Below are positions 1 through 44,830 of a stretch of DNA of 44,830 bases, one piece after another (within the stretch, counting starts at the first letter, position 1; every line of letters begins with the position of its first letter). A program made the position numbers and the translations under genes. The notes beneath the pieces were generated by a model, which did not search any database, was not told the origin of the DNA, and was given only the letters and a program-made list of their open reading frames with translations. This stretch comes from a virus (taxonomy: Duplodnaviria; Heunggongvirae; Uroviricota; Caudoviricetes). Location: the IMG/VR virus record IMGVR_UViG_2740892487_000005, positions 1 through 44,830 of that record; one strand, given 5' to 3'.

Positions 1-474
1 TTAGGTTTTTTTTCGTTGAGCGTCGCGAATAGCTTCACTGTGTGGACGTGCTGCATGAACCGGGCGGCTGTCTAAAATCACCCGATTAACGCCGCGCTGA
101 TGTAAACCGCGATTAAGCGTTTGTTCCTCTTCTCCTTTGGCGAAAAACTGTGGATGGCGGACTTCCACGCCATAATTAAATTCGCCAGGAAGAGAATCGA
201 GAAAATGCCAAAGCGCAGGCAGCTCCCGTGGGCCGAATGTGGCAGGCAGTTGCAGCCAGTATTGCCCAATGCGCGGAGCCAACGGTGACATGCGGGTCAA
301 AAATTCAGTCACTAAATCATCGCAATGCCGTAATGCTGCCTGATGCGAAATGGTCGCCGGAAACTTAAAACAGAAGCGGAAGTCATCTGTGGTCTGCTCA
401 CGCCAGCGCAGGACAACCTCGGGTTTCGGCAGGGCGTAAAGCGTGGTGTTGCCCTCCACGCAGTTAACATGACG
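1..474 (-). CDS. yecE: DUF72 family protein YecE, 3' portion of host gene; 5' end displaced by prophage insertion
   Basis: 152-aa ORF matches the YecE/DUF72 protein as recalled from memory. In-frame upstream residues diverge into phage-derived sequence near 460-480. The stop at 1-3 looks created by an extra T in the T8 run at 6-13, so the gene probably continues off the window. Confidence 0.7.
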   Translation of the reverse strand, partial: RHVNCVEGNTTLYALPKPEVVLRWREQTTDDFRFCFKFPATISHQAALRHCDDLVTEFLTRMSPLAPRIGQYWLQLPATFGPRELPALWHFLDSLPGEFNYGVEVRHPQFFAKGEEEQTLNRGLHQRGVNRVILDSRPVHAARPHSEAIRDAQRKKT

Positions 475-490
475 GGCGTTAGGGGTTAAC
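455..490. other. Approximate host/prophage junction (attL region) between yecE remnant and integrase 3' end
   Basis: Host-like yecE reading frame ends about here and the integrase stop is at 486. Exact core not determinable without attR. Confidence 0.35.
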
Positions 491-1800
491 TTACTGATTT
501 TAATAATCCTCCAGTACTGCTCTCGTGGCTATGGGGCATCAATGGGGCAAAATCTGCCAGCTTCTGATTCAGCATTGCGATCTGCTCTGCGCTGCTGTCA
601 GCCATCCATGCACCGTAAACATTGAACACCATCTGCGCGCTCGCATGCCCCATCTGACTGGCAATAAAACTCGGGTTTGCACCAGCAGATAATGACCAGC
701 ACGCATAGGTATGTCGTGACTGGTACGCCTTTCTGTGTCTGATCCCCGCGCGCTTTAGTGCCGCTTCCCATGAGTCGCCTACTGAATCGACCCGGTAGAT
801 AAATCCGACCTGCTTACTGCGTCTGACCACATGCGGGTTAAAGACGAATGTACACTCATGGGTCACCGAACGACCGTACTCACGTAACTGCACTTCAATG
901 TGATATTGCCTGCCCAGCCTTGTCATTTCAGCCTGATTTTTCAGGATGCTGATTGCGGGCTGGATAAGATGCACCACTCGATCTGTGCTTGCCTCGGTTT
1001 TCGGTAGAGTGAACTCACCAAGTTTCGTATAATTACGCCTGACGGTAATTGTTCCCGCCTTCAGGTCGATATCTTCCCAGGCCAGGGAGACCAGTTCCCC
1101 GTGACGCATTCCTGTGTACACTGCTAATGACCACAGGTTTTTCGTCTGCTGATGCCGGCATGCATCTATCAGGCGAATAAATTCATCACGAGACAGAGGA
1201 TCTGGTTCTGCCCTGGCTTTTTTCAGAGGTTTAATTCCCTCGAATGGGTTCACCTCTAAGTAACCGTGATCCGCAGCAAACTGAAACATTCCGGCCATTG
1301 TCGTCATGTAATAGTTCACAGTAACAACGCTTCGCCCTTTTGCCGGGGCTTTATTTTTCGTCGGACTCTGATAACCAGTTAGCAAATCTTTCCTGAGATA
1401 CAGCAATTCCTCTTTGGTTACTGCTGACACCAGGCGATTACCTCCGATCCTCGGCACCATATTCCTTGCGACAGATTCATAGCGATTGAATGCGTTCGCG
1501 CAGATTTCCATCCGTTTCAGATCCAGCCATTTTTCTTCAAGTTCTTTCACTGTAATGTCTTTTTTTACTTACACCAAAAGCCTTGAGGTTAGGGGAGTCA
1601 GGAAACTGGGTTGCATAATCAAAGGTTCCTGTGCGGATGGCAAAACATACTGATGTCCGCAGTTCCCCGGCTATCTTTCTGTTCTTAGCGGTGTCAGGGA
1701 CACCGAGACTTTCCCTGACACGCTTACCTTTAAAATTAAACCAGATGCGTAATGTGCCACCGTGGTTTTCGACGCCTGTTGGATATGTGACTTTATCCAT
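486..1800 (-). CDS. int: Tyrosine integrase (lambda Int family with N-terminal arm-binding domain); split in this sequence by a single-base indel
   Basis: ORFs 1537..1800 (N-terminal arm-binding-like 87 aa) and 486..1550 (354-aa core and catalytic domain) are adjacent in different frames. Removing one T from the T7 run at 1560-1566 joins them into about 438 aa. Confidence 0.9.
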
Positions 1801-1858
1801 TGGTGTTACCTCCAGACGCCCAAGAGCGATACGAGCTTACCTTTTTCATGGCATCAAA

Positions 1859-2095
1859 TCACCCTGGCTGCTTGCTTTTCATTGAAGCGACCCAGGCATC
1901 TACAGCCTTTCTGTTATACATGCACTCACTGGAAGGTTTAGGATTTCCGTCAGGCGATACGTGGATATACTCCCTCCCAATCATCCAGCATTCTTTTCTG
2001 GCCCGGAGGATGGTACCGGGCTTGAGCCCGGTCACCGCGATCAGAACACTTTCACAAACCCAATCGTTAGGAGCTAACTGAATAACATTGCTCAT
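1859..2095 (-). CDS. xis: Excisionase-like protein
   Basis: 78-aa ORF directly upstream of int with an Xis-like motif (…ILRARKECWMIGREY…). Confidence 0.65.
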   Translation of the reverse strand: MSNVIQLAPNDWVCESVLIAVTGLKPGTILRARKECWMIGREYIHVSPDGNPKPSSECMYNRKAVDAWVASMKSKQPG

Positions 2096-2104
2096 ATACC
2101 CGCC

Positions 2105-4020: not shown

Positions 4021-4106
4021 TGCTCCCGGAACTGTCGGTTAATTCGGTTGAAGGTGAACGCCAGCAATAAAAAAAGGCCGCTTTAGCGACCCGGTGATCA
4101 GTGCCT

Positions 4107-4298
4107 TCATGCTGCACCGCCTTCATTCTTCTCGGCTTCGACTGCCATCTGCTCAAGCCGTAGTGAAAGCTCGGCGGCCAGCGTCTGGAATTCTTCCTCG
4201 GTCGCCACAGGAATCGGCACAAAGCGAATCCCGATGTGGGCTAGGTGATTGGCAATTTCGAGGCTCTTCCTCAAATCAACGGGCGAGGCTTTGTTCAT
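4107..4298 (-). CDS. Hypothetical small phage protein
   Basis: 63-aa ORF in operon context. Confidence 0.45.
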   Translation of the reverse strand: MNKASPVDLRKSLEIANHLAHIGIRFVPIPVATEEEFQTLAAELSLRLEQMAVEAEKNEGGAA

Positions 4299-4669
4299 GC
4301 GGCTTTCTCCCCGGGTAATGGTTTCAGACCGTCATTCAGCGTGCGCTCAAGGTTGGACAATATTCCTCGCAACCTCTTTATCTCTTCATCCTCGGTCAGT
4401 CGGCGCATTGCTTCCCATAGCGTCCTTGTCAGAACATACATAGGGACATTCGGGTCGAGGCCAAGTGCTTTCGCCAGACCTTGCTGAGCGTCGGTTAACC
4501 TTTCCTCCGATTCCTCCCGGCGCTTACGTCGGCGTTGCATCTCCTCCTCACTTTCCTGGCGCAGGTTCTTCAGCCTTTCATCGTTATCCCTAACCTGCTG
4601 CTCAAGCCGCTCCTTCGACCGATGCGCTCGACAAACAAGATCGGCGATTTCGCTGCCATGTCGCTTCAT
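4295..4669 (-). CDS. Hypothetical coiled-coil protein (possibly the C-terminal part of one gene with 4602..5162)
   Basis: 124-aa ORF rich in charged heptads. It overlaps the upstream ORF by 68 nt; a T7 run at 4707-4713 could be an indel that splits a single gene. Confidence 0.45.
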   Translation of the reverse strand: MKRHGSEIADLVCRAHRSKERLEQQVRDNDERLKNLRQESEEEMQRRRKRREESEERLTDAQQGLAKALGLDPNVPMYVLTRTLWEAMRRLTEDEEIKRLRGILSNLERTLNDGLKPLPGEKAA

Positions 4670-5162
4670 AAGTTTTTGTTCGCTGAGGTAGGTGTTGATT
4701 ACGCGATTTTTTTATTTGGGTTCTCTCTGCCTGTCGCGTCATGCCATCCATAAGCAACTTCATCCAGGCGTCGCGAGGTAGGTTATCAATCTGGCGCATT
4801 GTCGGCCCCTTGAGGGTATGCCATCCAGTTTCCTTCCGGATCATCAAGCCACAACCATCTGGGATGTCGCTTTTCTTGAGCATGCCTTCAGGAACTGCAA
4901 AAACAACGCCACCTGCATAGCTGAAGTATTTGGTGTATTTGCCTGCTGTAACGTCAGCCCGGAAATCACCTACGCTGACTTTAACCTCATAGACGACTGG
5001 GCAGAACTTGCTGTAGCTGTGAGCAATAGAGTAGACATCAGGTCGGCACGTTCCGGCGGGCCCAAGCTGCATATCCTCCCAGCAGATGCGCGCTGTGTTC
5101 TGGCGCAAATGCTCTGCAAGGTCATGAGCAAGCTCGTTATGACCCCATTTTTTTGTTGTCAT
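4602..5162 (-). CDS. Hypothetical phage protein (186 aa)
   Basis: ORF MTTKKWGHNELAHDLAEHL…; family not recognised with confidence. Confidence 0.55.
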   Translation of the reverse strand: MTTKKWGHNELAHDLAEHLRQNTARICWEDMQLGPAGTCRPDVYSIAHSYSKFCPVVYEVKVSVGDFRADVTAGKYTKYFSYAGGVVFAVPEGMLKKSDIPDGCGLMIRKETGWHTLKGPTMRQIDNLPRDAWMKLLMDGMTRQAERTQIKKSRNQHLPQRTKTYEATWQRNRRSCLSSASVEGAA

Positions 5163-6155: not shown

Positions 6156-7013
6156 GCTGCCGCCTTAGCTTTTTTCTGAAGGAAGTTGAACCCTTTCTGT
6201 GCCTCTTCTTCAGTGAGGTCTGACGCCTCAAGAATTGGCCGTTTGAAGATGTCGCTGCACACTGGGAGGAAGTCTTGCTCCCAGTCTTTATTCAGCGATG
6301 TTAAGAGATCGGTGATCGCCTGAAGTGTTTCTTCGCTTGCTGCTGGTGGAAGCGCTTCTGTGGTGCTGCGCGGGGTGACGTCACGAATATCAACGTCCAG
6401 CGATTTGCCTTCCATTTCTTCTGCAGTAGGCTGCTGTCCAATCTCAGGCCATGCCTTGCGCAACGCCTGGGCTTCTGCGCATTTCGCCAGCTGTCCATAC
6501 GGGCGTTTTTTTCCACATCGCGTTCGGCGCCGTGGTGTCACGTCCGCCGGTGGCGTAGTTTTCAATCCAGTATTCTTTAGCGCTGAACTCGACGATCTCG
6601 CCGCTGGGCATGCGCTTGAAAACGGTGTATTTGCACCACTGAGGGAAGGTCACCTCGACACCAGTAAGCGTCTGAGTTACGTCGGGCCCGAACTCGGGCT
6701 CGCGAGCCCCGGCATAATCGCCGGAGCGGTCTGCCTGAATGCGGTAAAGTCCGATGCCCGGCATGACGACGTCGCGCCATTCGCCTTTACCTGTTTTCGA
6801 GTCTTTGACGTACATCGGAACGAGGTGGACAGGTTTGAGCAACGGATCCAGCTGGCGGGCGCGGCAGTAGTCAAGCGCCATCATTACCGATTCGTCTTTG
6901 GCGCCAGGATAGATGCTGTTCTTCAGCGCGCTCCAGGTGGAGACGTCGACGCCTATCTCCTGAAGCGACGTCGCTGTGATTGTTAATTCGTTTGCCATCG
7001 TTAATCCCCTCAA
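6152..7013 (-). CDS. bet: Recombination protein Bet (RecT family single-strand annealing protein); split by an indel in this sequence
   Basis: ORFs 6444..7013 (N-terminal) and 6152..6565 (C-terminal …[38 protein letters not shown], Bet-like) overlap in different frames. Removing one T from the T7 run at 6506-6512 joins them. Confidence 0.85.
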
Positions 7014-7301: not shown

Positions 7302-7808
7302 AAATTCTCCGGTTTTCTTTCTTCATGAACGGCATGCTTGCCGTGCATTCGCTCTCTTGCTGCAACGACAACAGCCCTGGCCTCATTAAGGTCGGTGAAA
7401 TTGCCAAGGTGGTATTTTTTGCCGTCGATAGAGCAGCGCGCGTGCCAGCGTTTATCTTTCTTATTCCAATAAACGCCTTTGACGCCGCTTGTGTTGTTTT
7501 TTGGAGAGAGCTTATTTAGCTGATTAATGCAGTGAGGAACGTCCCTGAGGTTGCATAACCTGTTGTCAGTTCTGATGCCGTTTATGTGGTCTATTTCATG
7601 CTCAGGCCACGAACCATACGAATAAAGCCATGCCAGGCGATGGCATAAATATCTTTCGTGGTCGATAGATACTCGAAGATAACCCATAGGGTTTAACGAC
7701 CCAGCGATAGAGCCGGTAACCATGCCGCCGGCAGTTTTTTAGCCTGGTGAAAATCCCAGTCTCTGCGTCGTAGTGAAATAACTCCTTTAACCTCTGAATT
7801 GAAAGCAT
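7298..7808 (-). CDS. HNH endonuclease (AP2-domain type); split by an indel in this sequence
   Basis: N-terminal ORF 7602..7808 (MLSIQRLKELFHYDAETGIFTRLKN…) and C-terminal ORF 7298..7723 (…GYLRVSIDHERYLCHRLAW…KGVYWNKK…) join if one T is removed from the T6 run at 7735-7740. Confidence 0.75.
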
Positions 7809-13212: not shown

Positions 13213-13405
13213 TTCATTACTTGAAACATGCAATGACTGGCAAATTCTTCGCGCAGAAATATTGGCTCGAAATCCAAATATGGCCATGACACTTCAAAAG
13301 CTCGACATCATGATTGAGCATTCCGTTAGGGCGGCAATTGAAATATCGCATCGTGTTGACTGGGATTTTAGTGAAGCAGAGCGTAAAGCTAAGGCGGTGA
13401 ATTAA
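13205..13405 (+). CDS. Hypothetical small protein
   Basis: 66 aa from ATG 13205 (MANSLLETCNDW…). Confidence 0.4.
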   Translation: MANSLLETCNDWQILRAEILARNPNMAMTLQKLDIMIEHSVRAAIEISHRVDWDFSEAERKAKAVN

Positions 13406-17464: not shown

Positions 17465-17490
17465 GGCGGACCAGAACCCGCCTTTTTTTA
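17465..17490 (+). terminator. Intrinsic terminator, candidate tR' of the late leader transcript
   Basis: Stem GGCGG/CCGCC followed by T8 (17483-17490), about 450 bp downstream of Q. Confidence 0.55.
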
Positions 17491-19545: not shown

Positions 19546-20287
19546 ATGCATCAACACATAGCAAACGCCACGTTTCAGGTCATCGCAGGTGACTCAAGTG
19601 GCAGTGGTTTTAGCTTCATCCGTGAAGATTTAGTTGTCACTAATTACCATGTTATAGAGTCATGCTTTAATCTAGAAACCAGAAGTCAAACCCATAGCAT
19701 CATCCTGAAAACGGAAGCTAATGAGCAAATTGCAGCTGGGATTGTCTACTTTGACCACGGTAATGATTTTGTCATCATGAAACTGCTTTCAGCACTGCCC
19801 ACAGGTAGAGTTGTTCTTCAGCCTTCCGTTGGTTTTTCACCCACCAGAGGCAAAAAAAATTATCTTTGCCGGTTATCCACACGGAATACCGCAGTTGCTG
19901 ACAAATGAAGCAATTATCTCAGCACCTATGGAGTTAGGCAGATTTGCAATTGATGGTATGGTCAATGGTGGTAATTCTGGCGGGCCAATTATAGATCGAG
20001 CCTCTGGCGAACTGGTGGGTGTCGTCACTCGGCGTAGATATCTTATGGGCGATCAAGCTGATGCTTTCAGTGAGGAGATTGAAAATTTGCGCCAATATCT
20101 TGCTGCAGCAAGCCAACATGGAAGTGTAGCAATAATGGGTGTCAATTTCGGCCAGATGGCAGATATGTTCGGTAGATCGCTACAGATAGTTTCAGATATG
20201 ATGTTGCTTAACGCTAATTCTGGCATCGGAATAGGATTCTCAATGCAGCCTATCATTGACGCCCTTAGCACCATCCCAACAGAATAA
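19546..20287 (+). CDS. Trypsin-like (S1/chymotrypsin-fold) serine protease, no signal peptide; split by an indel in this sequence
   Basis: ORFs 19546..19908 and 19811..20287 join when one A is removed from the A8 run at 19851-19858. Catalytic triad context TNYHV / DFVIMKL / GNSGGP. RBS GGAGAA before the ATG. Confidence 0.8.
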
Positions 20288-20879: not shown

Positions 20880-21481
20880 ATGAGCAAACCGGACTGGGAG
20901 GCTATTGAATCGGCTTACCGGGCCGGAGTGATGTCCCTTCGCGAAATAGCATCGCAGCATGGCATCAGCGAAGGTGCTATCCGTAAGCGTGCCAAGCGTG
21001 ATGAATGGTCACGTGACCTCAACGCGAAGGTGAAAGAGCGCGCTGACGATCTGGTACGCAAAGCGAGGTACGCAAGCAGGTACGCAGCGAAACGGTACTT
21101 TCTGAGCGCGTACTAATCGAGGCCACTGCCGAGGTAATTGCCACAGTACGCATGGAGCACCGCGGCGACATCCGCCGGGCGAGGACTCTTGCGAACGCAC
21201 TGTTTGATGAGCTCGAGGCTGAGTGCGCAGACGTTGAGGCGCTGCGTACCTTGGGCCAAATGATGCTGTGTCCAGATGAGAACGGGCGTGACCGGCTGAA
21301 CGAGCTTTACCATGCCATCATCAGCATGCCCGAGCGCGTGAAGTCGATGAAAGCGCTGAGCGAGACGTTGAAGAATCTGATTGGCCTCGAGCGGCAGGCC
21401 TACAGCATGGACGAAGGCGAAAAAGATAAGGTCGTTGACGCGCTGTCTGACCTGATGGATTCGCTCTCTCAGGGGGCGTAA
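20880..21481 (+). CDS. Terminase small subunit; split by an indel in this sequence
   Basis: ORF 20880..21116 (HTH-type N-terminus MSKPDWEAIESAYRAGVMSLREIASQHGISEGAIRKRAKR) continues in ORF 21152..21481 after a one-base deletion near 21063-21066. Confidence 0.7.
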
Positions 21482-22952: not shown

Positions 22953-22964
22953 GGAGCATCGCCA

Positions 22965-24434
22965 GTGAGCGAACAAGATAACGGCCTCAAACTGGCTGTG
23001 AACAACCTCGCCACTGAAATGAGGCGAGCGAATTACCTGAATGCCATCGGCATTGGGGGCGGCAACACGAAGCGCCCGACGCTCTATCAGGAGTTTGGCT
23101 ACCCGCGCACGATCACGTTCAACGACTTCTACAACATGTACCGCCGCAATGCCGCCGGGTTCGCTGTGGTGCACCGCCTGCTGGATGGGTGCTGGCAGGA
23201 TTACCCGGTCATCATCGACGGTGACGAGACGGAAGAAGCGAAAGAGACCAATTCGTGGGAAAAGAAAGTCACCCGCTTCATGAAAAAGCTGTGGTCGAAG
23301 GTTAAAGACGCCGATCGCCGCAATATGGTTGGACGTTACTCCGCTCTGTTGTTGCAGGTGAAAGACAATAACCCCTGGAGCGAGCCAGTCGACATCAAGC
23401 TGGTGAAATCCCTCGGTGAGTCTGCGCTGGTGAAGCTGATCCCGGTATGGGAGCCGCAACTAACCGTCGCTGACTGGGATAACGACCGCCTCTCGTCCAC
23501 CTTCGGCCAGCCGTTGATGTTCAACTTCAACGAACAGCCGGTGGGCGATGACCAATTTGTCGGGCCGATGCGCGGTGAGCCTGTGCACCCAAGCCGGGTG
23601 ATCCTTTTCTGTGAAGGTTCAGAGGATGAAAATGTCCTGTCTGGCATCCCGCTGCTTGAGGCCGGCTATAACAAAGGACTGGACCTCGAAAAAAGTATCA
23701 GGTGGCGGAGCCGAGGGTTTCCTGAAGAACGCCAGCCGCCAGATCGCGGTTGAGTTCAGCAAAGATACGGACATGGCCACACTTGCCAGCCAGGCAAAGG
23801 CAGCTGGTTATGACGATCTCGGCAGGCGATGGGCGACAAGGTCAACAAACTGAACCGCGGGACCGACGCCGCCGCTGTCATGCAGGCCGGGCAGATGCGG
23901 GTGCTCAGCGTGACGCCGGGTGACCCGGGGCCGACGTGGGAGGTTACTGCGAACGAACTGGCCGCCTCCGTGCAGATCCCATTCACCATCCTGTTTGGGC
24001 AACAGACCGGACGCCTGGCGAGCGACGAGGACAAAACCGACTGGGCCATTCGGCGCAACACGCGACGTAACACTTTCCTGACCGACCGAATCACCGCGCT
24101 ACTCGAGCGCTTCTGGACGCTGGGCATCATTGACCCGCCAACAAATGGCGAAGTCACTATCCAGTGGAGCGATCTGCTGGCGCCCGGCGAGAAAGAGAAA
24201 ATCGAGAACATGTCCAAGCTGGCTGATGTCGTCCAGAAAACAACTGGCATGTATGGCGGTGAAGCGCCGTTGACTATCAACGAACTGCGACAGGTAATCG
24301 GGCTTGAGCCATTACCTGAGCCCAAAGAACCGCCGAACCCGGACGATAAGGTGACAACCGATGATCCACTGGCCGATGACACCCGAACAGAAGGAGAAGG
24401 TGGGCCTGCCGATAGTTCCGCGCAGCAAGGTTGA
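22965..24434 (+). CDS. Portal protein (DUF1073/HI1409-like); split by two indels in this sequence
   Basis: Three consecutive ORFs (22965..23753, 23611..23853, 23829..24434) read as one protein if one A is removed from the A6 run at 23689-23694 and one base is added near 23826-23830. GTG start after AAGGAG. Confidence 0.75.
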
Positions 24435-25857: not shown

Positions 25858-25870
25858 GGCGGCCTTTTTT
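25848..25870 (+). terminator. Intrinsic terminator after the cargo gene
   Basis: 7-bp stem (one G-U pair) with 4-nt loop followed by T6. Confidence 0.55.
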
Positions 25871-25902
25871 TATTGCCTGAACCCCACCAATGAGGACCCA
25901 GC

Positions 25903-27291: not shown

Positions 27292-27296
27292 AAAAA

Positions 27297-27729: not shown

Positions 27730-27740
27730 GGAGCACCTGA

Positions 27741-28822: not shown

Positions 28823-28831
28823 GGGGTCCCT

Positions 28832-33212: not shown

Positions 33213-33545
33213 ATGAGCGAACAAGAGCAACTTCAGCGTTTGAGTGAAGAGGTGGCCAGAGCATACCTGCGCCACCTGGAATCAACCACTGGCGGAAATA
33301 AAGTTACTTACGATGGCGTGACAAGATCAATTACCCTCGAAGAACTAGTTTTTGGTCTCATAGGGGTCGCGCACTTCAATGCGAAAAACCATCCAGATGA
33401 CGAGATACTAAAAGACCCATATAAACATCTCTCGCACATGATTGATATTTTATCAAAGCCGTATGTGATAACTGAGTTTGGTCTAAAAGTTATTGAACAT
33501 ATGAATGAAATTTCCATTCATAAACAGCGCGGGGTGTTGATGTGA
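33213..33545 (+). CDS. Hypothetical protein (110 aa)
   Basis: Middle gene of the cargo cassette. Confidence 0.5.
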   Translation: MSEQEQLQRLSEEVARAYLRHLESTTGGNKVTYDGVTRSITLEELVFGLIGVAHFNAKNHPDDEILKDPYKHLSHMIDILSKPYVITEFGLKVIEHMNEISIHKQRGVLM

Positions 33546-33919
33546 AAACGGGTGCAATGTGCTTATCTTTGCTGATTTTAATTTCTGGTTGCGATGATGG
33601 CGGAAAAGGAAGTGTATCTAACGGCGCTGATACAGCTATAACAATGTTCAAATCATCTATGAGTGAGGGGGATCATCCACCCTTCAACTATCAGCGTCTC
33701 GTATTCAAACCAGATCAGCAAAACTCAAGCAAGGTAATAAGTGGGTGGGTTTGCGGAGATGGAAGCATGAAGCGTGATGATAAGACCTTTAACTTTAAAG
33801 TTAGAGGTCATGTTATTAAGTCAGAAGATATTTCATACGTTGGTGACATAGCCGCACTGCTTTCTGATACTGAAATGGTCAAATACGACATTCTTTACAA
33901 TAAGAATTGCAAAGAATAA
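33542..33919 (+). CDS. Hypothetical lipoprotein
   Basis: Lipobox …LLILISGC… at the N-terminus. Confidence 0.55.
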   Translation: MKTGAMCLSLLILISGCDDGGKGSVSNGADTAITMFKSSMSEGDHPPFNYQRLVFKPDQQNSSKVISGWVCGDGSMKRDDKTFNFKVRGHVIKSEDISYVGDIAALLSDTEMVKYDILYNKNCKE

Positions 33920-33979: not shown

Positions 33980-36892
33980 ATGGCAAAAGAACAAAATGCT
34001 GGCAGCGTCGTCTATACGGTAAGCGCTGAGATAGAACCCCTACTGATTGCTGGTAAGCAGGCCATTGATGTTCTGGATAAGCTGGATGCAGCCGCTCAGC
34101 AGTCTGGCAAGGGAATGGATAGCCTGGACCAGAGCACATCCCAGACCGGATCGGCGTTCAACGAACTGGCTGGATATGCCAATTCAATGGATAACCAACT
34201 GCGTAAACTGAACACCAATGTAAGCGGCATAGCTCGCGCCATGGAAGAAGCTCGCAGCGGTACCGGGGGAGCTAACAGCGAGTTCAATCGTGCTGAATCA
34301 ATCATTGAGGCATTGGGTAACCAGCTGGCGATACTGGACGAGGCACAGGAGAATGGCGCTCGCAGCGCTGCAGTGTTGGCAGCCCAGTTACGCGCCGGGT
34401 CTAAAGCCACCGATGAAGAAAAGCAGAAAATTGGCGAGCTGACAGGCCGTCTATACGATATGAAAACCAGTGTAGATGCTGGTTCAAAAGGTCATGGAAA
34501 CTGGAAAAACAGCATGCAGCAAGCTGGCTACCAGGTGCAGGACTTCATCGTTCAGGTTCAGGGGGGGCAGTCTGCGCTGGTGGCCTTCGCTCAGCAAGGC
34601 TCACAGCTTGCTGGAGCTTTTGGTCCAGGAGGCGCGGTAGTAGGTGCTGTTCTTGCGCTAAGCACGGTTGTAGCAGGGGCGCTTATAACATCTTTGAACG
34701 GCGGAAAGTCTGCCATGGATGCGCTGAAAGATGCAGCCGAGGCGATGGATAAAGTCATTACTATTTCTCAAAATGGTGTGGCTGCGCTGTCAGATAAGTA
34801 TGCAATGCTCGCTAAAACTAACGCAGAAGCAGCGACCATTCTCCGCAATCAAGCCATCATTGAATATAATTCAGCTGTTTCAAAGATCCCGAAGGCTATT
34901 GGTGATGCGGCGGCTTCGGTAATTGATTTTGGCGATAAAGCTCTCAGCGCTTTTTCAGGTGGTTATGCATCAATTAAAGGTTTTAGTGACCGACTTGCCT
35001 CGCTGAATATCACCACTGATGACTACACAGAGGCAATGAAGCAGGCTTATGGCGCTGGGCAGGCCTTCCAGGCTACAGCGAGTAGCATCGGCAATACCGT
35101 TGGCTCAGTTGCGAGTAAGTTCGCAATCTCTGAGCAAGCTGCCTTTAAGCTTGTTAAACAAATGGATGAAGTGCAGCGGACCAAATCCACAGAAGCACTT
35201 CAAAGATTGGTCATAGAATTACAAAACACCAAAAGCTCATCAGATAGCGGAACTAACGCGATTATCGAGTTTTTGAAACCACTAACGGAATTAGTTGGTG
35301 CGGCTGGGATGGCAAAAGTCAACTTGGCCGGTATGAACCTTGAGATGGATAATCTCACCGCTGGCCAGAAAAACCTTATCAAGCAGACAGAGCGCAACTT
35401 AGCACTGTCAAAATTGCAGGGTGAGGAGCGAGTGCGACTGCAGGCGCAATACGCAGCTGAGGATGCAGGGTTTGCTAAAGACGACCCGCATGCTAAGCAG
35501 ATGGAGCAGGATGCAGCAGCGACCTACCGTAACACCCAGGCACAGAAAACCTTCCAATCTGAGCGGAAGAAGGGAGTCTCGCAGGCTGAATCCATTGCTC
35601 AGAAACTGGCAAATCTGAAGCAGCAGGCAGAACTGGCTGCCGGGTCGACGCAACAACTCAGCCGCGAGCAGGCCATTCTCACCGCCCAGCAATCTCTGGG
35701 TGCAGCAGCAACTCAAAAAGACCTCGAACTTGCCGGTCAGTATGCCGCTGCAAAATGGGATACTGCCAACGCGCTCAAAGCCCAGGCCGCCGCCGAGAAA
35801 CTCCTGCCGGAAACGCGCGAAAACGCCAGCTATAAGCAGGATGTTCAGGATCTGAATACTGCCCTGACCGCGAAGAAAATCAGTCAGGAACAGTACAACG
35901 AAACCGCAGAACGACTGGAGGCGACGCACCAGACCAACCTCGCCAAAATCCGCGCTCAGCAGGCGGTAACGCCCCAACAGGAGGCGGCTGGCACTGTTGA
36001 CCCGGTGCAGCAACTGGCGAACGAGAACGCGCGTAAGCTGGCGCTGATTCAGCAGTACGAGCAGCAGGGCGTATTAACCCACCAGAATGCGCTGGCGCTG
36101 CGAGCTGCTGCTGATACAGAGTACGAGCAGGCGCGCATCGCTGCACAGTGGGAGATTTACCGTAATCAGAGCACTGGCAATGAACTGCTGGCCACCTCGC
36201 TGGAAGGCCTGCAGAGCGGGGCAACCAATGCCCTCACTGGATTAATCAACGGCACCCAGAGCCTGCAGGAGGCAATGGCTAACGTTGGCTCGACCATCAT
36301 CAACAGCGTGATCGGCAGCCTCGTAGAAATGGGCATGCAGTGGGTTAAAAATCAGGTGATGGGGCAGGCAGCGGCGGCAGCCTCTCTGGCATCTACCATG
36401 GCGCAGGCAACTGCTGCAGCATCAGCTTGGGCGCCGGCAGCAATGAGTGCGTCGATCGCCACGTACGGCAGCGCCGCTGCTGTTGGTCAATCGGCTTATG
36501 CAGCCTCTCTTCTGTCAGCCAAGGGGTTAGCTGTCGCCGGTGCCCGCGAACACGGCGGGCCGGTCTCGGCCAGCTCCATGTACCGTGTGGGCGAAGGTGG
36601 CAAACCTGAGATTTTCAAAGCCAGCAATGGTAGCCAGTACATGATCCCCGGCGATAACGGTCGCGTCATCAGTAACCGCGATATTGGCGGTAGTGGCGGT
36701 GGGTTCAATTACAGCCCGGTCATCCATGTAAACGGTGACCCGACAGAGCAGCAGCTTGCCATGCTGGAGGCTGCAGTTAAGCGCGGGGCGCAGCAGGGAT
36801 ATTCCATGGCCGTCAGCGACGTCGCCAGTGGCAAAGGTAAGCTCTCCAACGCTCTGACCAACAACTTCAACACCAGTCAACGCCTCACATAA
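33980..36892 (+). CDS. Tail tape measure protein
   Basis: 970-aa Ala/Gln-rich, largely helical protein, between the tail chaperone position and the distal tail genes. Confidence 0.9.
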   Translation: MAKEQNAGSVVYTVSAEIEPLLIAGKQAIDVLDKLDAAAQQSGKGMDSLDQSTSQTGSAFNELAGYANSMDNQLRKLNTNVSGIARAMEEARSGTGGANSEFNRAESIIEALGNQLAILDEAQENGARSAAVLAAQLRAGSKATDEEKQKIGELTGRLYDMKTSVDAGSKGHGNWKNSMQQAGYQVQDFIVQVQGGQSALVAFAQQGSQLAGAFGPGGAVVGAVLALSTVVAGALITSLNGGKSAMDALKDAAEAMDKVITISQNGVAALSDKYAMLAKTNAEAATILRNQAIIEYNSAVSKIPKAIGDAAASVIDFGDKALSAFSGGYASIKGFSDRLASLNITTDDYTEAMKQAYGAGQAFQATASSIGNTVGSVASKFAISEQAAFKLVKQMDEVQRTKSTEALQRLVIELQNTKSSSDSGTNAIIEFLKPLTELVGAAGMAKVNLAGMNLEMDNLTAGQKNLIKQTERNLALSKLQGEERVRLQAQYAAEDAGFAKDDPHAKQMEQDAAATYRNTQAQKTFQSERKKGVSQAESIAQKLANLKQQAELAAGSTQQLSREQAILTAQQSLGAAATQKDLELAGQYAAAKWDTANALKAQAAAEKLLPETRENASYKQDVQDLNTALTAKKISQEQYNETAERLEATHQTNLAKIRAQQAVTPQQEAAGTVDPVQQLANENARKLALIQQYEQQGVLTHQNALALRAAADTEYEQARIAAQWEIYRNQSTGNELLATSLEGLQSGATNALTGLINGTQSLQEAMANVGSTIINSVIGSLVEMGMQWVKNQVMGQAAAAASLASTMAQATAAASAWAPAAMSASIATYGSAAAVGQSAYAASLLSAKGLAVAGAREHGGPVSASSMYRVGEGGKPEIFKASNGSQYMIPGDNGRVISNRDIGGSGGGFNYSPVIHVNGDPTEQQLAMLEAAVKRGAQQGYSMAVSDVASGKGKLSNALTNNFNTSQRLT

Positions 36893-38470: not shown

Positions 38471-38642
38471 ATGGAAAAAGTAACGCTGTCCGTAAAATTT
38501 GATACCACATCATTAGATGAGGCAATCGAGAAGGTCAGGACCTTAAAAAAAAGAACTAAGGGAGCTTGGCTTGCCTTACTTCACCGGCAATCCTCTGGCT
38601 GGATACCAGCCACAACAAGAAGAAAAAGCCACCAACCAGTAA
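38471..38642 (+). CDS. Hypothetical small protein (about 56 aa), partner of the metallopeptidase-like gene; frameshifted in this sequence
   Basis: Removing one A from the A8 run at 38545-38552 gives MEKVTLSVKFDTTSLDEAIEKVRTLKKELRELGLPYFTGNPLAGYQPQQEEKATNQ*, ending exactly at a strong terminator. Confidence 0.4.
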
Positions 38643-39056: not shown

Positions 39057-42000
39057 CGATCCGAATCTATCCCTCACGCCTGCCCGGCGAGCCGCTGGAA
39101 AAGCACGAACACGAAACGATGACCCTCAGCGCCTGGTTTGCGCGGAACGTGAAGGACTGGGCACCGGATCAGCAGCATCCGGTTGCGGTTGAAATCGACT
39201 GTGTCCCCGTCCCGGCGTCAGAGTGGCCACTGTGCGTTATCAAACGCGAAACCGACGTCAGGATGTATCCGGTACCATACGGTACGGGAGCAGAAATCGC
39301 GCTGTGGGTGGCCGTCAGTTTGGCTGTCGCCTCTGCTGCGTACAGCATCTACATGATGAGTACCATGTCGCAGGCAGGCGGCGGTGGTTCCCAGGCGGCC
39401 AGCGGTGACCAGATTGACCTCAACCCGGCCAAAGCGAACTCGGCGAAACTCGGTGACCCCATCCGGGAAATCTTCGGCAAATATCGCGTATGGCCTGATT
39501 ACGTCGTGCAGCCGGTGAGCCGGTTCGTCAACGAGACCAGCATGGAAACCAGCATGTTTCTGTGCGTGGGTGTCGGGGACATGGTGATTAACCAGTCCGA
39601 TATCCGGATCGGTAATACGCCAATCTCTGCTTTCGGTACGGACGTGCGTTACACCCTCTACCCGCCTGGCGCCACGGTATCCGGCGACACGCGCACTGAA
39701 AACTGGTTCAACTCACCAGAGGTCGGCAATACCGGCTCCGGTACCGCCGGGCTGGACCTGGGCTCAAGCGGCCCGGAGACGGTCAGTATTATCGCGGATG
39801 CGCTGGTCGTGTCCGGAAACTCCATCACGCTGGTTGACGTATCGTCGTCTGGGGATGAGGAGATCCCGCCGTCCTGGACGGTCGGAACGGTGATCACCGT
39901 GCTGGCACCAAACTCCTATACGGTCGTGTCGTCCGGCGGTTACAGCGTGATTTATGGCGGAGTAGAGGAACTGGCACCAGTGGTCGGCATGCCAGTATCC
40001 CTGAACTATAACGGCAACGACTACGATCTGGTGATCGCCAGCTACGCCCCTGGCGTTCCGGCGGTGCCGGGGGTAGGCGGTAGCGCCGCCAGAATCACAG
40101 CCAGTGCAGCGCCGACGACCTACGATTTCAGCACCACGCCTGTGACGTTCAGCATCAGTTGGCAGGGCACGACTTACCCGGTATCGCTGGTGACCAACTA
40201 TGTCACCATGTCAGGGCTGGTTTCCTCGATCACCTCGCAATTGTCCGGTTCCGGCCTGGTCGCGCGCGATAACAGTGGGCGGCTTGAAATTGGCGAGGCC
40301 AGCAGCCCCTATGCTGGCGGGTCCATTACGAACAGCCCGTTACCCGTTGCTGTGTTCGGTGATGCTCCGGTTAATACGGCTGGCGTGAAATCAACTGGCG
40401 GCACTGCGGAAGTGAGGGCGCACATTACCCTGGCCTACAATAGCGCCACTGGCACGCCATTCACCGGTCTGCCGGAAGGCATCCAGCGGTTCTCTCTGGG
40501 GCTGGCTGGCAATCAGTTCCGGATCACCGACGTGGACAGCCAGACGGTCACGGTTGAGAGGATTGCAGTCACCACCGGACCTGGCGGTGAGACCATCACG
40601 ACGCCAGAACTATCGTGGCCCGGATTCACTGAGCGAACCCTTCTGGACGCGACCGTTACTGGCGTCAGCGACGATTATGAATGGGTGGGGCCGTTCCTCG
40701 CCTGCCCCGACGGCGAAACCATGGACGCATTCGAAGTGAACATCAACTTCCAGAGCGGGCTGGTTCGCTACACCGATAAAGGTAACAAGCGCTCCATGCC
40801 CGTGCGCCTGGTGATCCAGTATCGCAAGGTTGGTACCACCGCCTGGCAGCAGCAGTCTCCGTTCTATTCCCGCAGCACCGAAAACCAGATTGGGTTTACG
40901 CATCGCTACAGCGTCTCACCCGGTCAGTATGAGATCCGTATGCGCCGCACTGAAACGGTTAAAGGTGGCAGCACGCGTGACCAGGTCTTCTGGCAGGCGC
41001 TGCGCTCCCGGCTGAGAAAGCGCCCCACGAAGTACGACGGAGTCACCACCATGGCGCTGACCGTGCGCACAGGGAATCGCCTGGCGGCCATGTCCGATCG
41101 CCGGATAAGTGTCACACCAACCCGGATTTACAGCGGCGGCAGAACGGCGCGGAGCATCAGCGGGGCGCTTTACCACGTCCTGGAGTCACTTGGGTTCACG
41201 ACCAGCCAGATTGATACGGCGGCAATTGACGCGCTGGAACAAACCTACTGGACGCCCCGCGGTGAGAAGTTCGACTGGGCGAGCGGTGAGAGCAAGTCCG
41301 CACTTGAGGTGCTGCAGAAAATCACCAACGCAGGTATGGGGTATTTCCTGCTGTCTGACGGGCTGGCGTCTGCTGGCCGGGAAGGGATTAAACCCTGGGT
41401 AGGCATGATCACCCCGCAGGAAACCACCGAGGAGTTGCAGACCGCGTTTAAGGCCCCGTCTCAGGACGATTACGATGGCGTGGACGTGACGTATATCAAC
41501 GGTACCACCTGGCAGAGGAGACCGTGCAGTGTCGCCTGCCTGGCAACCCTACGCCGGTGAAAATCGAGAGCTACACGCTGGATGGCGTTCTGGACGAGGA
41601 CCGCGCTTACCGCATCGGCATGCGCCGGTTGCTGGGCTACCAGTTGCAGCGCCTGCAGCACACCACCTCAACCGAGATGGATGCGCTCTGCTACGAGTTC
41701 ATGGACCGCATTGTGCTGGCCGATGACATCCCCGGCAGCCAGACACTGAGTTGCCTGATTACCGATATGACGTATGACAGCAGCAAAATCACCCTGACGC
41801 TCAGCGAGGCCCCGGACTGGTCGTTCCAAAGCCCGCGCGTGATTATCCGCCACCATGACGGGCGGGCATCGGCAATGGTTGTGCCGACACACATTGACGA
41901 CTTCACGATCTCGGTGCCGTACAGCGCCGCGCTGGAGCCGGAATTATGGGCAATGAACGATGCGTACATTGAGCCGCCGCGCCTGCTGTTCTGCTCGTCT

Positions 42001-42135
42001 GTCCGTGTGCCGTATGACGCACTGGTGGGGGAAATATCCCCAGGCAATGACGGGATCAGTCAGGTAACAGCCATCCAGTACCACCCAGGAAAGTATGCCT
42101 ATGACGACGCCACTTACCCCGGCGACGCCGCTTAA
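39053..42135 (+). CDS. Large tail host-specificity protein (gpJ-position); split by an indel in this sequence
   Basis: ORFs 39053..41560 (835 aa) and 41524..42135 (203 aa) join with a one-base correction near 41514-41518 (…YINGTTWQ / ETVQCRLPGNPTPVKIESYTLDG…). Confidence 0.7.
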
Positions 42136-42156
42136 AAAAGACTTCAATATTATCTG

Positions 42157-42179
42157 ACCCGCTTCGGCGGGTTTTTTTT
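42157..42179 (+). terminator. Intrinsic terminator
   Basis: Stem ACCCGC/GCGGGT with loop TTCG followed by T8. Confidence 0.8.
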
Positions 42180-42194
42180 ATGCCAGGAGCTAGC

Positions 42195-44186
42195 ATGACC
42201 ACATACGCCACGAATAACCCGAGAGGGTCAATGGATCCGAAGGACCTGTTCGATAACGCCCAGAACCTGGACTTTGCGGTAAACGATATTACCAAAGCAT
42301 TCTGGAAGGACCGCTTCGGCAGAAATCGACCAACAATGTTTGGCATGGAGCAGGCGTTTTCTGCCCAGCTGCTTAGCCAGAAACAGCGCTTTGACAATTT
42401 TATCCAGAGTTCAGGGTATAAGGTTATTGGTGATTATACCGATGGCCCGCTGACTATTACTGAATATAACCAGCTAATCCGTTATCAGAATGAGTTCTAC
42501 AAATTAACCGCCGCCACAACACTGCCGTTTACCACCACCGGTAATGACGCAACATCATGGGCCAATGATTCCCTGCATTTTGTCAGCGTGGGAGATGCTG
42601 CGCTTCGTCAGGAGCTGTCCGCGCCGGGGGGTGCGAGCCTGGTTGGCCCTGGGGTGATGGCTCGTGGTATTGATAAATTCTCAATATTTAATGGCAACCT
42701 AGGGGAAAATGCAACCCCTGGATTACGGGTTGATCTCAATACTCTGACAGGACAATCGACCGGTAACGGTAATTTCCTAAACATGGTTTTTATACCATCC
42801 GATCAATTGGACACCACGGGTAAAGTCGCTGGCCAGATGATTGATCATAGATTCGGAGGCGGTGCCGGAGGTAGACATGGGTTTATGTCAAGATTGATCC
42901 AATCATCACCGCAGTTAAGTACAACAAATGACCAGAACTACGTGGCTGTGGTAGCTCAAGTATTGTGTGATGCAGGCGACCCCATAGAAACATCTACCGG
43001 GTCTGTTCTTTTTGCCAGTGAGTCTTTTGCTGAAAGCCGAACAGATACTGGCAAAGTCAGGGCTGTTATTGGGTCGCTGCATGAGGCAGGGGTCTCAGGA
43101 ACAGTAATTCCACTTGATCGAATTGGCGTTCAAGTAACAAGTCAAGGCACAAAGAATGCCACTCGAGTTGATGCAGCCATTGGTGTGTCATCTGGGACTT
43201 CGCGCGCAGCCTGGAAAAACGGGATTAAGTTTTCAAATGTTACAGGTGGGCAAGTATTTGATTCAACATCCTGTGCAATTATCCTGGATCCAGAATCAAC
43301 ATCACAACCTAAGATGACCCTAGACGCGATTATAAAGGTCAAATCTTCTGATGTAACATTCAACAACATAATAGACACTCCAAGGGTAAAGCTGTCTCAA
43401 TCAGGCCTGGATATTAATTTAAGCTCGTCGTACATAAAACTTGGTGGGACGGTTGCTAGCAATACCCCGCATGTTAGTTTTCGCTCTGGCGCAACAGCCG
43501 CTCCAGGTTTTGATTCTAGATTTATCGCCACTGGAGGCAATGGCTCAGATGCGGGGGGGTCATTACAGGCACAATGCGCTACCCTAATTGTGTCTGGCAC
43601 GCTCAGGCCTAGCTCTGCAAACACATCTCTATGTGGTACGACATCACAACCATGGTCTGGCGGATTTACTCAAACTGCATTCACCGTAACCTCGGACGAA
43701 ACCCACAAGACAAAGCCGATAATGCTAGCTCGTGGCGTTCTGAAGCCTGCGACATCTTTAGATGCCGAAATGATGCCCCCTCCTCATGCTGATACCATTC
43801 TCGACGCATGGGCTGAGGTTGATTTCGTGCAATTCAAGTATCTAGACCGGGTAGAGGCGAAAGGTGAAGACGGTGCCCGTTGGCACTTTGGTGTTATTGC
43901 TCAGAGGGCTATTGAAGCATTTGAGCGCCACGGACTCGACGCATTTGCATTCGGATTTGCGTGCTATGACGAATGGGGCGGGACAGAGGAAGTTATCGAT
44001 GAAGAGTCGGGAGAGGTAATTACTGAGCGAGTTGACGCAGGCTCTAAATACGGCATTCGCTATGAAGAGGCGCTGGTATTGGAGGCAGCTCTCCAACGTC
44101 GCAACTATGCGAGATTGTTGGCCGATCAGGAGACAATGGCCGCACGTATTGAAAAGCTTGAAAGTCTACTCAGTAAGGCGAATTGA
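42195..44186 (+). CDS. Tail fibre/spike protein with C-terminal intramolecular chaperone (peptidase S74-like) domain
   Basis: Start at ATG 42195 after AGGAG. Central region visibly AT-rich. C-terminal …TSDETHK…DAWAEVDFVQFKYLD…GARWHFGVIAQ… resembles the self-cleaving chaperone domain of endosialidase-type fibres. Confidence 0.75.
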   Translation: MTTYATNNPRGSMDPKDLFDNAQNLDFAVNDITKAFWKDRFGRNRPTMFGMEQAFSAQLLSQKQRFDNFIQSSGYKVIGDYTDGPLTITEYNQLIRYQNEFYKLTAATTLPFTTTGNDATSWANDSLHFVSVGDAALRQELSAPGGASLVGPGVMARGIDKFSIFNGNLGENATPGLRVDLNTLTGQSTGNGNFLNMVFIPSDQLDTTGKVAGQMIDHRFGGGAGGRHGFMSRLIQSSPQLSTTNDQNYVAVVAQVLCDAGDPIETSTGSVLFASESFAESRTDTGKVRAVIGSLHEAGVSGTVIPLDRIGVQVTSQGTKNATRVDAAIGVSSGTSRAAWKNGIKFSNVTGGQVFDSTSCAIILDPESTSQPKMTLDAIIKVKSSDVTFNNIIDTPRVKLSQSGLDINLSSSYIKLGGTVASNTPHVSFRSGATAAPGFDSRFIATGGNGSDAGGSLQAQCATLIVSGTLRPSSANTSLCGTTSQPWSGGFTQTAFTVTSDETHKTKPIMLARGVLKPATSLDAEMMPPPHADTILDAWAEVDFVQFKYLDRVEAKGEDGARWHFGVIAQRAIEAFERHGLDAFAFGFACYDEWGGTEEVIDEESGEVITERVDAGSKYGIRYEEALVLEAALQRRNYARLLADQETMAARIEKLESLLSKAN

Positions 44187-44223
44187 TAGGCAGCCTCGCA
44201 TTGATCTGCAATCCCTTTAAAAC

Positions 44224-44243
44224 TACTGTATATAAAAACAGTA
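44224..44243. promoter_or_regulatory. LexA (SOS) box
   Basis: TACTGTATATAAAAACAGTA matches CTGT-N8-ACAG, placed 15 bp upstream of the ATG at 44259. Confidence 0.7.
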
Positions 44244-44258
44244 AAAGGAGTGCAGATC

Positions 44259-44498
44259 ATGCCCCGCCGTTCCGACATTCACGCCGCATTTGTGGCTGCA
44301 ATACAGCAAAACCCTAAAGGTTATCAGTGCCTTCACACGAATGACTTCATCCGTGAGTTGCGCGCCAGGAACTGGCATTTCACGCAGGCCGACGCCAACG
44401 ACTGGATAGAGCGCTATCAGCCCGACTTCGCCGACAAGACTACAGACCTGAGCGTGAACCGCCTGTGGATCCTGCGCAATATGGGGAGGGTTCACTAA
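44259..44498 (+). CDS. Hypothetical SOS-regulated protein (80 aa)
   Basis: ATG 44259 with AAGGAG RBS directly downstream of the LexA box. Confidence 0.5.
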   Translation: MPRRSDIHAAFVAAIQQNPKGYQCLHTNDFIRELRARNWHFTQADANDWIERYQPDFADKTTDLSVNRLWILRNMGRVH

Positions 44499-44830
44499 TG
44501 GGCTTCGCCTCACCAGCTACCGACTATATAGAGCAGCGGGTTACGCCAGCCAGTGTCTGCATGACTCCCGACAGTCGCATCCTCGAGACGTCGGCGGGTT
44601 ATGCGATCATCGTCCCGGTCACGCGCCCACAGCAGGGTGATGCGCTGTTGATTCTGTCCGGAGGTCGGACGCAGTTTGCGAAGCTTAGGGGTAAAGCGTT
44701 AATCACGGATGACGGCGAAGCGATCGAAGGTGATGCAGCTGAAGAGGCTGAGGTTATGAGGCGGGTGACGCACTTTATCAACAGCACTGATGCTGCGATA
44801 TCTCCTGAGGCGGCATTGGCGCAGTTTTGA
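44498..44830 (+). CDS. UmuD'-like protein (resembles pre-processed UmuD, lacks catalytic Ser motif)
   Basis: Coupled start (TAATG) after GGGGAGGG. N-terminus MGFASPATDYIEQR… resembles UmuD residues following its self-cleavage site (GFPSPAADYVEQR…, from memory); no GDSM motif. Confidence 0.45.
   Translation: MGFASPATDYIEQRVTPASVCMTPDSRILETSAGYAIIVPVTRPQQGDALLILSGGRTQFAKLRGKALITDDGEAIEGDAAEEAEVMRRVTHFINSTDAAISPEAALAQF

Follow-up and report, generated by a model that had tools for sequence, protein, structure and literature searches.

E. coli K-12 carries the cryptic lambdoid prophages DLP12, Rac and Qin, and the element studied here, as its record stands, resembles them in its lambdoid gene order within an E. 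coli chromosome and in its many interrupted genes. Prophages of the DLP12, Rac and Qin type are marked by module deletions, IS elements and nonsense mutations shared within lineages, whereas the window (the whole stretch of 44,830 nucleotides analyzed here) holds a full gene set and private +1 or -1 indels. Its structural module is 81 to 98% identical to those of the prophages of E. coli FDAARGOS_1250 and MB20 and of Klebsiella phage ST101-KPC2phi6.1, with which, as lambdoid siphovirus prophages, it shares a DUF1073 portal, a Mu-F-like head protein and a DUF6260 capsid. Unlike these prophages, the element in the window is a mosaic combination.

The other close parallel is sequencing error. Flow-space homopolymer miscalls in Ion Torrent PGM data were reportedly described by Bragg et al. 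2013. Like Ion Torrent PGM and 454 miscalls, the damage in the window is indel-only, rises steeply in probability with run length and causes frameshifts whatever the function of the gene. Raw Ion Torrent or 454 errors differ in that the long A/T runs of the window were only over-called, while under-calls fell only in very short runs, most of them G/C; this pattern probably reflects the behavior of MIRA plus HomoHomo correction rather than that of the raw reads. Pervasive single-base frameshifts at homopolymers, with split genes, are also seen in unpolished Nanopore and PacBio assemblies, but those errors mainly shorten runs, whereas the long runs of the window are lengthened and its platform was Ion Torrent.

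Based on provenance, error spectrum and repairability, the indels in the window are almost certainly not mutations but errors in the consensus derived from Ion Torrent PGM reads. An earlier note on this DNA had likewise preferred homopolymer-biased error over pseudogenization, and its preference is borne out by the same three lines of evidence. We regard the broken genes as an ordinary data-quality artefact with no new biology.

GenBank LAWZ01000002.1 (GCA_001631005.1), a contig of the E. coli RCE11 draft genome (LAWZ00000000), contains the window exactly, at 100% identity with 0 mismatches and 0 gaps over 20,851 nt. A sister Ion Torrent assembly, RCE07 (JWKB00000000), reportedly shares 99% identity with RCE11 across 92% of the chromosome. 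The genome was sequenced on an Ion Torrent PGM with a 318 chip and the 200-bp kit and was assembled with MIRA 4.0 (PMC5517970). The platform behind LAWZ00000000 is therefore a flow-based one, as an artefact of flow chemistry presupposes. The RCE11 authors themselves traced 'artificial frame shifts' to 'Ion Torrent homopolymer errors', and their BLAST-guided homopolymer fix lowered artificial indels only about 2.5-fold, i.e. removed about 60% of them; Bragg et al. 2013 is among the works that they cite (PMC5517970). In the GenBank annotation no gene is called across terS/terL/portal, the 143-aa head protein and capsid, or TipJ, and truncated fragments are annotated elsewhere.

A plausible course of events can be proposed. 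Flow-based chemistry infers run length from signal intensity, and the MIRA assembly called true A/T runs of 6 to 7 bases one too long about half the time and two too long once, a few G/C runs of 2 to 3 bases one short, and a single T not at all. The authors' BLAST-guided fix was limited to sites with discordant reads and a close database hit. Since correction needs such a hit, many errors probably survived it in a prophage that is mosaic and then had few close relatives. The RCE11 reads would be expected to show run lengths shorter or longer than those assembled.

The window was compared with a set of 29 related loci (labelled L001, L002 and so on), each site being covered by only some of them. 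This comparison with close relatives, which the earlier note had suggested, gave 22 firm sites, 23 bases in total, at which the window differs in length from all 29 loci, all private to the window, plus one ambiguous site (Table 1). Of the differences, 17 are frameshifts, and these break 16 genes. Frame switches were located independently by tblastn and blastx with proteins of the relatives.

Table 1. Single-base (in one case two-base) length differences between the window and related loci, with the frame switches and the products obtained on correction
Position	Strand	Site and feature	Change and comparison	Frame switch and corrected product
6..13	-	T8, host yecE (DUF72)	+1, sense-strand A8; T7 in L002, L023	
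1560..1566	-	T7, integrase gene	+1; T6 in relative	437-aa Int split into 87-aa and 354-aa ORFs; switch at 1561-1565, 100% identity on either side (tblastn); corrected Int 437 aa, 100% identical to L023
2824..2828	-	T5, 108-aa PF04447/DUF550-like gene	+1; T4 in 8/8 relatives	ORF 108 aa; stop-to-stop frame (111/111) 100% identical to L032
4069..4075	.	A7, intergenic terminator-like tract between DUF1382 and TraR-like genes	+1; 12/12 relatives shorter	
4707..4713	-	T7, MmcB-like gene	+1, gene split; T6 in 9/9 relatives	Switch at 4710, 100% identity on both sides (blastx); ORF 288 aa, same as relatives
6506..6512	-	T7, bet (RecT family)	+1; 10/10 relatives shorter	Stop-to-stop ORF (287/287) 100% identical to L032; RecT domain unbroken across site
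7735..7740	-	T6, HNH endonuclease gene	+1; L020, L021 shorter by one base	ORF 169 aa, equal to annotated HNH of L020
13572..13578	+	A7, DUF551 gene	+1; A6 in L002	Switch at 13568-13590; links ORFs 13405-13596 and 13619-14152; ORF 248 aa
17483..17489	.	T7, intergenic terminator upstream of holin, after GC-rich hairpin	+1; T6 in L017, L018	
19256..19262	+	A7 directly after ATG of small gene	+1; A6 in L017, L022	ORF 59 aa, equal to L017 gene at 4142-4321
19852..19859	+	A8, S1-family (trypsin-like) peptidase gene	+1	Switch at 19835-19857 (blastx); minus one A, 246 aa; stop-to-stop ORF 256, as in L022 (256); Trypsin_2 domain matches 1-144/144 across site
21063..21064	+	terS, one base missing (CC->C)	Alignment to L019	Switch at 21059-21065; ORF 200 aa, as in L019
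22007..22008	+	terL, one T missing	Extra T in both L018 and L019	Switch with 96% amino-acid identity on either side; ORF 490 aa, as in relatives
23689..23694	+	A6, portal gene	+1, first of compensating pair; 4/4 relatives shorter (L009 99.3% identical locally)	
23823..23824	+	Portal gene, one C missing (CC->C)	Extra base in 4/4 relatives	Frame regained 43 codons past the +1; with both sites fixed 489 aa, as in relatives; Phage_portal_3 contiguous
25865..25871	.	T7, intergenic terminator tract	+1; T6 in L008 (99.75% local identity), L010, L001	
27290..27297	.	A8 between stop of 462-aa gene and next ATG	+2; A6 in L008, L010, L003	
27591..27597	+	A7, 143-aa head protein gene ('decoration' gene of the earlier note)	+1; A6 in L008, L010; L003 shorter by one base	Switch at 27592-27596; ORF 143 aa, as in L008
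28498..28499	+	Major capsid gene (DUF6260), one C missing (CC->C)	Extra C in L008, L010, L003	Switch at 28490-28499; ORF 360 aa vs 361 in L008; DUF6260 matches 4-301/301
38545..38552	+	A8, 56-aa gene upstream of CHAP-domain gene	+1; A7 in 7/7 relatives (99.75% local identity)	ORF 100% identical to L012
41510..41511	+	TipJ host-specificity gene, one G missing (GGG->GG)	Extra G in 10/10 relatives	Switch at 41512-41539; ORF 1027 aa, as in relatives
42134..42139	.	A6 overlapping TipJ stop codon	Possible +1, ambiguous; 10/10 relatives one base shorter, but flanking sequence divergent	Without coding consequence
42172..42179	.	T8, terminator between TipJ and tail fibre gene, after GC hairpin	+1; T7 in 9/10 relatives	

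Most of what the earlier note had reported from the letters alone agrees with this comparison. It had described pervasive single-base indels splitting at least 15 genes; every site that it listed exists. All 11 of its homopolymer runs are present, nine of them at the coordinates given there and two displaced by one base (the A7 lies at 19256-19262 and the A8 at 19852-19859). Its claim that these runs are one base too long also holds, each run exceeding its counterpart in all relatives with coverage of the site, with the protease A8 judged by protein frame. Its five missing-base sites are real, but the true positions lie 0 to 9 nt from those that it had stated. Further sites, absent from its list, were found in the MmcB-like gene (4707-4713) and in intergenic sequence (4069-4075, 17483-17489, 25865-25871, 42172-42179 and 27290-27297).

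The nearest relatives of the lysis-to-portal segment have 72 to 88% DNA identity, and indels there were placed by frame and by restoration of length. For the peptidase A8, where relatives are at about 72 to 78% DNA identity, support is at the level of protein frame together with a 72%-identical DNA alignment. In the collections searched, no relative of the lysis-terminase-head segment was closer than about 85 to 95%. Exact look-ups of the endolysin and the 462-aa head protein returned only the source contig and gave no independent, near-identical copy of the central region. Two candidate indels from an automatic screen were dropped: at 10911 L002 has no gap, and the intergenic sequence around 14821 is divergent. 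The small gaps that occur in pairs at 17517-17550, 21092-21103, 21431-21442 and 28831 were alignment noise in divergent stretches.

The spectrum of the differences is strongly tied to run length. Among A/T runs of at least 7 bases, 13 of 15 were longer than in all relatives, versus 8 of 891 runs of 3 to 5 bases (about 1%; Fisher p = 5e-22), and the over-called fraction rose with the inferred true A/T length from about 0.6% (4) through about 5% (5) to about 50% (6) and about 60% (7). All long-run changes were insertions (18/18; binomial p = 8e-6). The five deletions all fell in very short runs, with three CC->C, one GGG->GG and one single T lost. G runs of at least 6 bases were unaffected, in a tiny sample (n = 3); their sparing is slightly unexpected for error driven purely by length.

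Neither the function of a sequence nor its owner made a difference. Apart from the ambiguous A6 at 42134, five firm intergenic sites were affected, of which four are T-tracts after hairpins, so coding status was irrelevant. Host DNA was altered too, both in yecE and in the region upstream of yecD; within 2 kb past the window the source contig has only two runs of at least 6 bases, both affected, one of them upstream of host yecD. The errors were thus blind to essentiality and to the host/phage boundary, with terL, portal, capsid, host yecE and DNA near yecD all affected. The presence of the pattern in host yecE and in essential packaging genes, already pointed out in the earlier note, was confirmed for the yecE T8, terS, terL and portal.

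Repair was equally uniform. With 24 single-base edits, one of them at the ambiguous site, every broken gene attained the stop-to-stop length of its homologue, and Pfam domains ran uninterrupted across the repaired sites; the expectation that the frameshifts would vanish on single-base correction was borne out when re-annotation after the edits restored homologue lengths. The repaired Int, DUF550-like, MmcB, Bet and 56-aa proteins have 100% amino-acid identity to proteins of other genomes. A greedy comparison of stop-to-stop ORFs between the window and its homologues revealed no remaining nonsense mutation, IS element, large deletion or truncated real gene in the window after repair. The one clear in-gene length difference of natural type, 24 nt in a gp10-like gene, is in frame.

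These results bear directly on the possibility that the element is a genuinely decayed cryptic prophage in which real slippage mutations accumulated once selection ceased. Pseudogenes commonly arise in nature by homopolymer slippage, and E. coli frequently carries defective lambdoid prophages; the relatives, moreover, have a few RefSeq-flagged fragments, such as a DUF550 gene marked 'partial' (L013 and L014) and a hypothetical gene marked 'frameshifted' (L020 and L021). Decay is nevertheless very unlikely here. All 17 gene-breaking lesions are +1 or -1 indels, unaccompanied by nonsense mutation, IS element, deletion or module loss, and the 18 long-run changes are unidirectional. Once repaired, the proteins reach identities of up to 100% with intact homologues, i.e. 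there was no drift after the supposed inactivation. Intergenic tracts were lengthened at an equal rate, and the host gene yecE, whose run is T7 in 4846 of 4848 matching complete E. coli genomes, was changed likewise, as was DNA near yecD. The lesions were also not inherited, as not one of them occurs in any of the 29 related loci despite local identities of up to 99.8 to 100%. Finally, the source platform is documented for exactly this artefact (PMC5517970).

Altered host sites would also fit a strain deficient in mismatch repair (MMR), in which real homopolymer indels arose genome-wide and the prophage was hit along with the rest. When MMR is defective, indels in runs become more frequent, and steeply so as the runs get longer. 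We consider such a mutator extremely improbable, given about one indel per 2 kb with roughly half of the A/T 6- to 7-mers changed, a load that, extended to the whole genome, would cost a large part of the essential genes. Mutator lineages gain far more transitions than indels, but the near-identical blocks shared with other strains (about 10 kb at 99.7 to 100%) had only 12 substitutions beside 6 indels, each indel being +1 in an A/T run. To our knowledge, a strict bias toward insertions in A/T runs is not the MMR spectrum.

All 12 coding insertions fell in runs that read poly(A) on the sense strand, and rescue by poly(A) slippage is known in some endosymbionts. The tracts could on this basis be real and be decoded by transcriptional or ribosomal slippage, as programmed or tolerated frameshifting, but the chance of this is close to nil. 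Homologues in the 29 loci have a shorter, in-frame run and a single open frame, and the slippery site is not conserved. Terminator tracts that read T on the transcribed strand (4069, 17483, 25865 and 42172) were equally lengthened, and the five -1 sites lie outside slippery sequence. The preponderance of A on the sense strand simply follows from the distribution of long runs in coding DNA.

In nature, too, frameshifts arise most often by slippage in A/T runs, and any single site could therefore be genuine. That some of the lengthened sense poly(A) tracts are real, in a recently inactivated or slippage-decoded prophage of this Crohn's-disease E. coli isolate, for example after a transient mutator episode acting on A/T runs, strikes us as highly improbable.

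Read as sequencing error, the record can be corrected. With the 24 edits, the corrected sequence describes an apparently intact lambdoid prophage of the siphovirus type that sits between yecE and yecD in E. coli RCE11. The prophage occupies 470..44830 of the window, and its right end lies about 1.3 to 2 kb beyond. Genes follow the order int-xis, bet/exo/gam, repressor, O/P, nin region, Q, lysis, terS/terL, portal, head, tail, TMP, TipJ and fibre, in agreement with annotated relatives and with all modules present. The flanking yecD and aspS genes are present in L006 and L004. When the yecE junction was compared with the right flank for an att core repeat, only weak matches turned up. At the junction of the tail-chaperone-like ORFs (33545/33542) no slippery heptamer was obvious, and the junction has the appearance of an ordinary GTG/TGA overlap. 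The tape measure protein of the window occurs with identical amino acids in more than 100 index blocks of public assemblies.

Taken uncorrected, the element would probably be misjudged by completeness tools, pseudogene counts and protein-cluster databases. The pattern offers a cheap flag for flow-chemistry assemblies before decay is read into them: nearly all A/T runs of at least 7 bases are one longer than in relatives, damage is indel-only, and intergenic tracts are equally affected.

The sole genome with T8 in yecE among the 4848 examined is that of strain A29, where the gene is annotated as 'frameshifted'. In A29 yecD carries the same flag as yecE, and the strain may represent a case of unpolished Nanopore or PacBio sequence.

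The earlier note had preferred homopolymer-biased sequencing error as the cause of the frameshifts; documented provenance, the error spectrum and a repair test all support that reading, and on this basis the window frameshifts are almost certainly such errors. Alignment of the window to 29 related loci, taken from complete E. coli genomes as well as draft or metagenome assemblies, showed that all eleven over-long runs listed earlier were present (two offset by one base), each holding one base more than in all covering relatives. The proposed missing-base sites were genuine one-base deletions relative to all relatives, at the positions given in the table. Frame switches at matching sites were seen independently in protein-level searches. 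The comparison added a coding site in an MmcB-like gene, four intergenic +1 sites and one intergenic +2 site, and an A6 run in divergent sequence was ambiguous. Relatives of the central segment are distant, so indels there were placed by frame restoration. Overall, 17 frameshifts break 16 genes, with the portal gene carrying a paired +1 and -1, 43 codons apart.

Coordinates of the features and result of the repair test (positions are in the window unless another sequence is named)
Feature	Position	Stop-to-stop length, corrected / relative (aa)	Amino acid identity
Int		449 / 449	100%
DUF550-like		111 / 111	100%
MmcB-like, T7 run	4707-4713	295 / 295	100%
Bet		287 / 287	100%
HNH		174 / 174	97.1%
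S1 peptidase		256 / 256	73.6%
terS		208 / 208	79.2%
terL		500 / 500	96.6%
Portal		493 / 493	93.3%
143-aa head protein		144 / 144	100% and 97.8% either side of site
Capsid		360 / 361	90.3%
56-aa gene		56 / 56	100%
TipJ		1047 / 1047	97.1%
One-base deletions	after 21063, 22007, 23823, 28498, 41510
Intergenic +1 sites	4069, 17483, 25865, 42172
Intergenic +2 site	27290
Ambiguous A6	42134
Prophage position between yecE and yecD	460-520; source-contig locus L006 ~21800-22150
A7 runs right of window	source-contig locus L006 21452-21458, 22711-22717
Empty source-contig gene calls	~20750-24361, 27292-28831, 39057-42194
G runs of 6-7 bases	34561-34567, 42626-42631, 43553-43559
gp10-like head-tail gene	30367-30831
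Divergent loop of gp10-like gene	30660-30710
110-aa and 125-aa ORFs	33213-33919
yecE and yecD of strain A29	633-1846 in locus L033 (NZ_CP028746.1)
Frameshifted gene adjoining gamL	291-489 in the HL15 locus (L020) and the XJ5.2 locus (L021)

An exact search with the tape measure protein led to contig LAWZ01000002.1 (GCA_001631005.1), to which the window is identical over 20,851 nt, with 0 mismatches and 0 gaps. LAWZ00000000 is E. coli RCE11, one isolate obtained from a patient with Crohn's disease; its reads came from an Ion Torrent PGM (318 chip, 200-bp kit), and MIRA 4.0 was the assembler (PMC5517970). Its authors attributed artificial frameshifts to Ion Torrent homopolymer errors, and their BLAST-guided tool, HomoHomo, cut artificial indels only about 2.5-fold, editing only those sites with polymorphic reads and an agreeing best BLAST hit (PMC5517970). 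Residual errors would thus be expected in a prophage that is a mosaic and had few near relatives in the databases of 2015. The gene calls of the source contig are empty over three stretches, where terS, terL, portal, the 143-aa protein, capsid and TipJ have no call, so the deposited annotation lacks the principal genes for packaging, capsid and host specificity.

The error spectrum depends steeply on run length. Among A/T runs covered by relatives, 13 of 15 runs of at least 7 bases exceed every relative, compared with 3 of 13 runs of 6, 1 of 48 runs of 5, 1 of 167 runs of 4 and 6 of 679 runs of 3, the last reflecting neighbour spill-over or divergent alignment (runs of at least 7 versus runs of 3 to 5, Fisher p = 5e-22). 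By inferred true length, over-calling affects about 0.6% of 4-mers, 5% of 5-mers, 50% of 6-mers and 60% of 7-mers. The 18 long-run changes are insertions without exception (p = 8e-6 under a 50:50 expectation), and the five deletions comprise CC to C (three times), GGG to GG (once) and the loss of a single T (once). Lengthening affects terminator T-tracts and other intergenic runs just as it affects coding runs. None of the three long G runs is lengthened, over-calling being confined to A/T runs in the present sample; the G7 of the tape measure gene is as long as in 9 of 10 relatives, and the ORF of the tail fibre is intact.

Host DNA is affected as well. The yecE gene has T8 in the window and T7 in 4846 of 4848 complete E. 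coli genomes, the sole complete genome sharing T8 being strain A29 (L033). In A29, yecE and its neighbour yecD are both annotated as frameshifted, which makes A29 a probable second case of an error-prone assembly. The source contig has only two runs of at least 6 in the 2 kb past the window, and each is an A7 matched by A6 in relatives; one lies after the hemerythrin-like cargo gene and the other upstream of host yecD, so the artefact extends into host DNA. The indel process therefore ignores biology, since intergenic tracts, host yecE and the host-side flank are also affected. Had the prophage really decayed, or had the strain belonged to a mutator lineage, one would not expect lesions that are exclusively +/-1, share one direction within each run class, strike intergenic tracts and host genes alike, and show no drift once the genes were inactivated.

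For the repair test, 24 bases of the window were edited, with 19 removed (one at the ambiguous A6) and 5 added, after which the stop-to-stop length matched that of the homologue in every broken gene. No premature stops remained in real genes of the corrected window, and no IS element or missing module was found in it. Pfam domains, including Trypsin_2, RecT, Phage_portal_3 and DUF6260, were continuous over the repaired sites. An alternative is that the poly(A) tracts are decoded through slippage, and 12 of 12 coding insertions do fall in sense-strand poly(A); the pattern, however, only mirrors the location of long runs in coding DNA. Terminator tracts reading T on the transcribed strand are also lengthened, the homologues stay open in one frame throughout, and the -1 sites lack slippery sequence, all of which argue against slippage. 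Upstream of the tape measure gene, two small ORFs (110 aa, then 125 aa in the -1 frame) sit where tail chaperones are usually encoded, with the same layout in relatives and no obvious slippery heptamer at their GTG/TGA overlap; a programmed frameshift there is at most possible. As an artefact, the frameshift pattern has low value as a new finding, but it can serve to flag data quality in the LAWZ assembly and sister assemblies.

The element is apparently an intact lambdoid prophage at yecE/yecD. Annotated relatives, from which gene names and order were taken, show that an E. coli lambdoid prophage fills the 44.8-kb window apart from roughly 480 nt of host yecE ahead of it, in the order int/xis, bet-exo-gam, repressor, O/P, nin region, Q, lysis, terS/terL, portal, head, tail, tape measure, TipJ and tail fibre. 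The left arm matches prophages of other E. coli genomes at 99.7-100%, and the tail module is about 95% identical overall, with several proteins at 100% in amino acids; for the lysis-to-head segment, relatives reach only 72-95%. The phage supplies a new yecE 5' end, and int overlaps the yecE start. An att core repeat for the yecE/yecD insertion was sought and none identified. The right-end cargo, outside the window, consists of the hemerythrin-like gene and a dinI gene.

Natural variation looks different. Where the window is nearly identical to its best relatives, a total of about 10 kb, 12 substitutions and 6 indels separate them, each of the indels being a +1 change in an A/T run; natural divergence usually gives a substitution to indel ratio far from 12:6. 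The only clear natural length difference within a gene is 24 nt, in frame, in a divergent loop of the gp10-like gene (154 aa in the window and 146 aa in all relatives). This indel is genuine and frame-preserving, unlike the +/-1 artefacts. A hypothetical gene adjoining gamL, annotated by RefSeq as frameshifted, is common to HL15 and XJ5.2, which are unrelated complete genomes; it is apparently a small pseudogene that is real and inherited within the phage group, a shared lesion that contrasts with the private lesions of the window.
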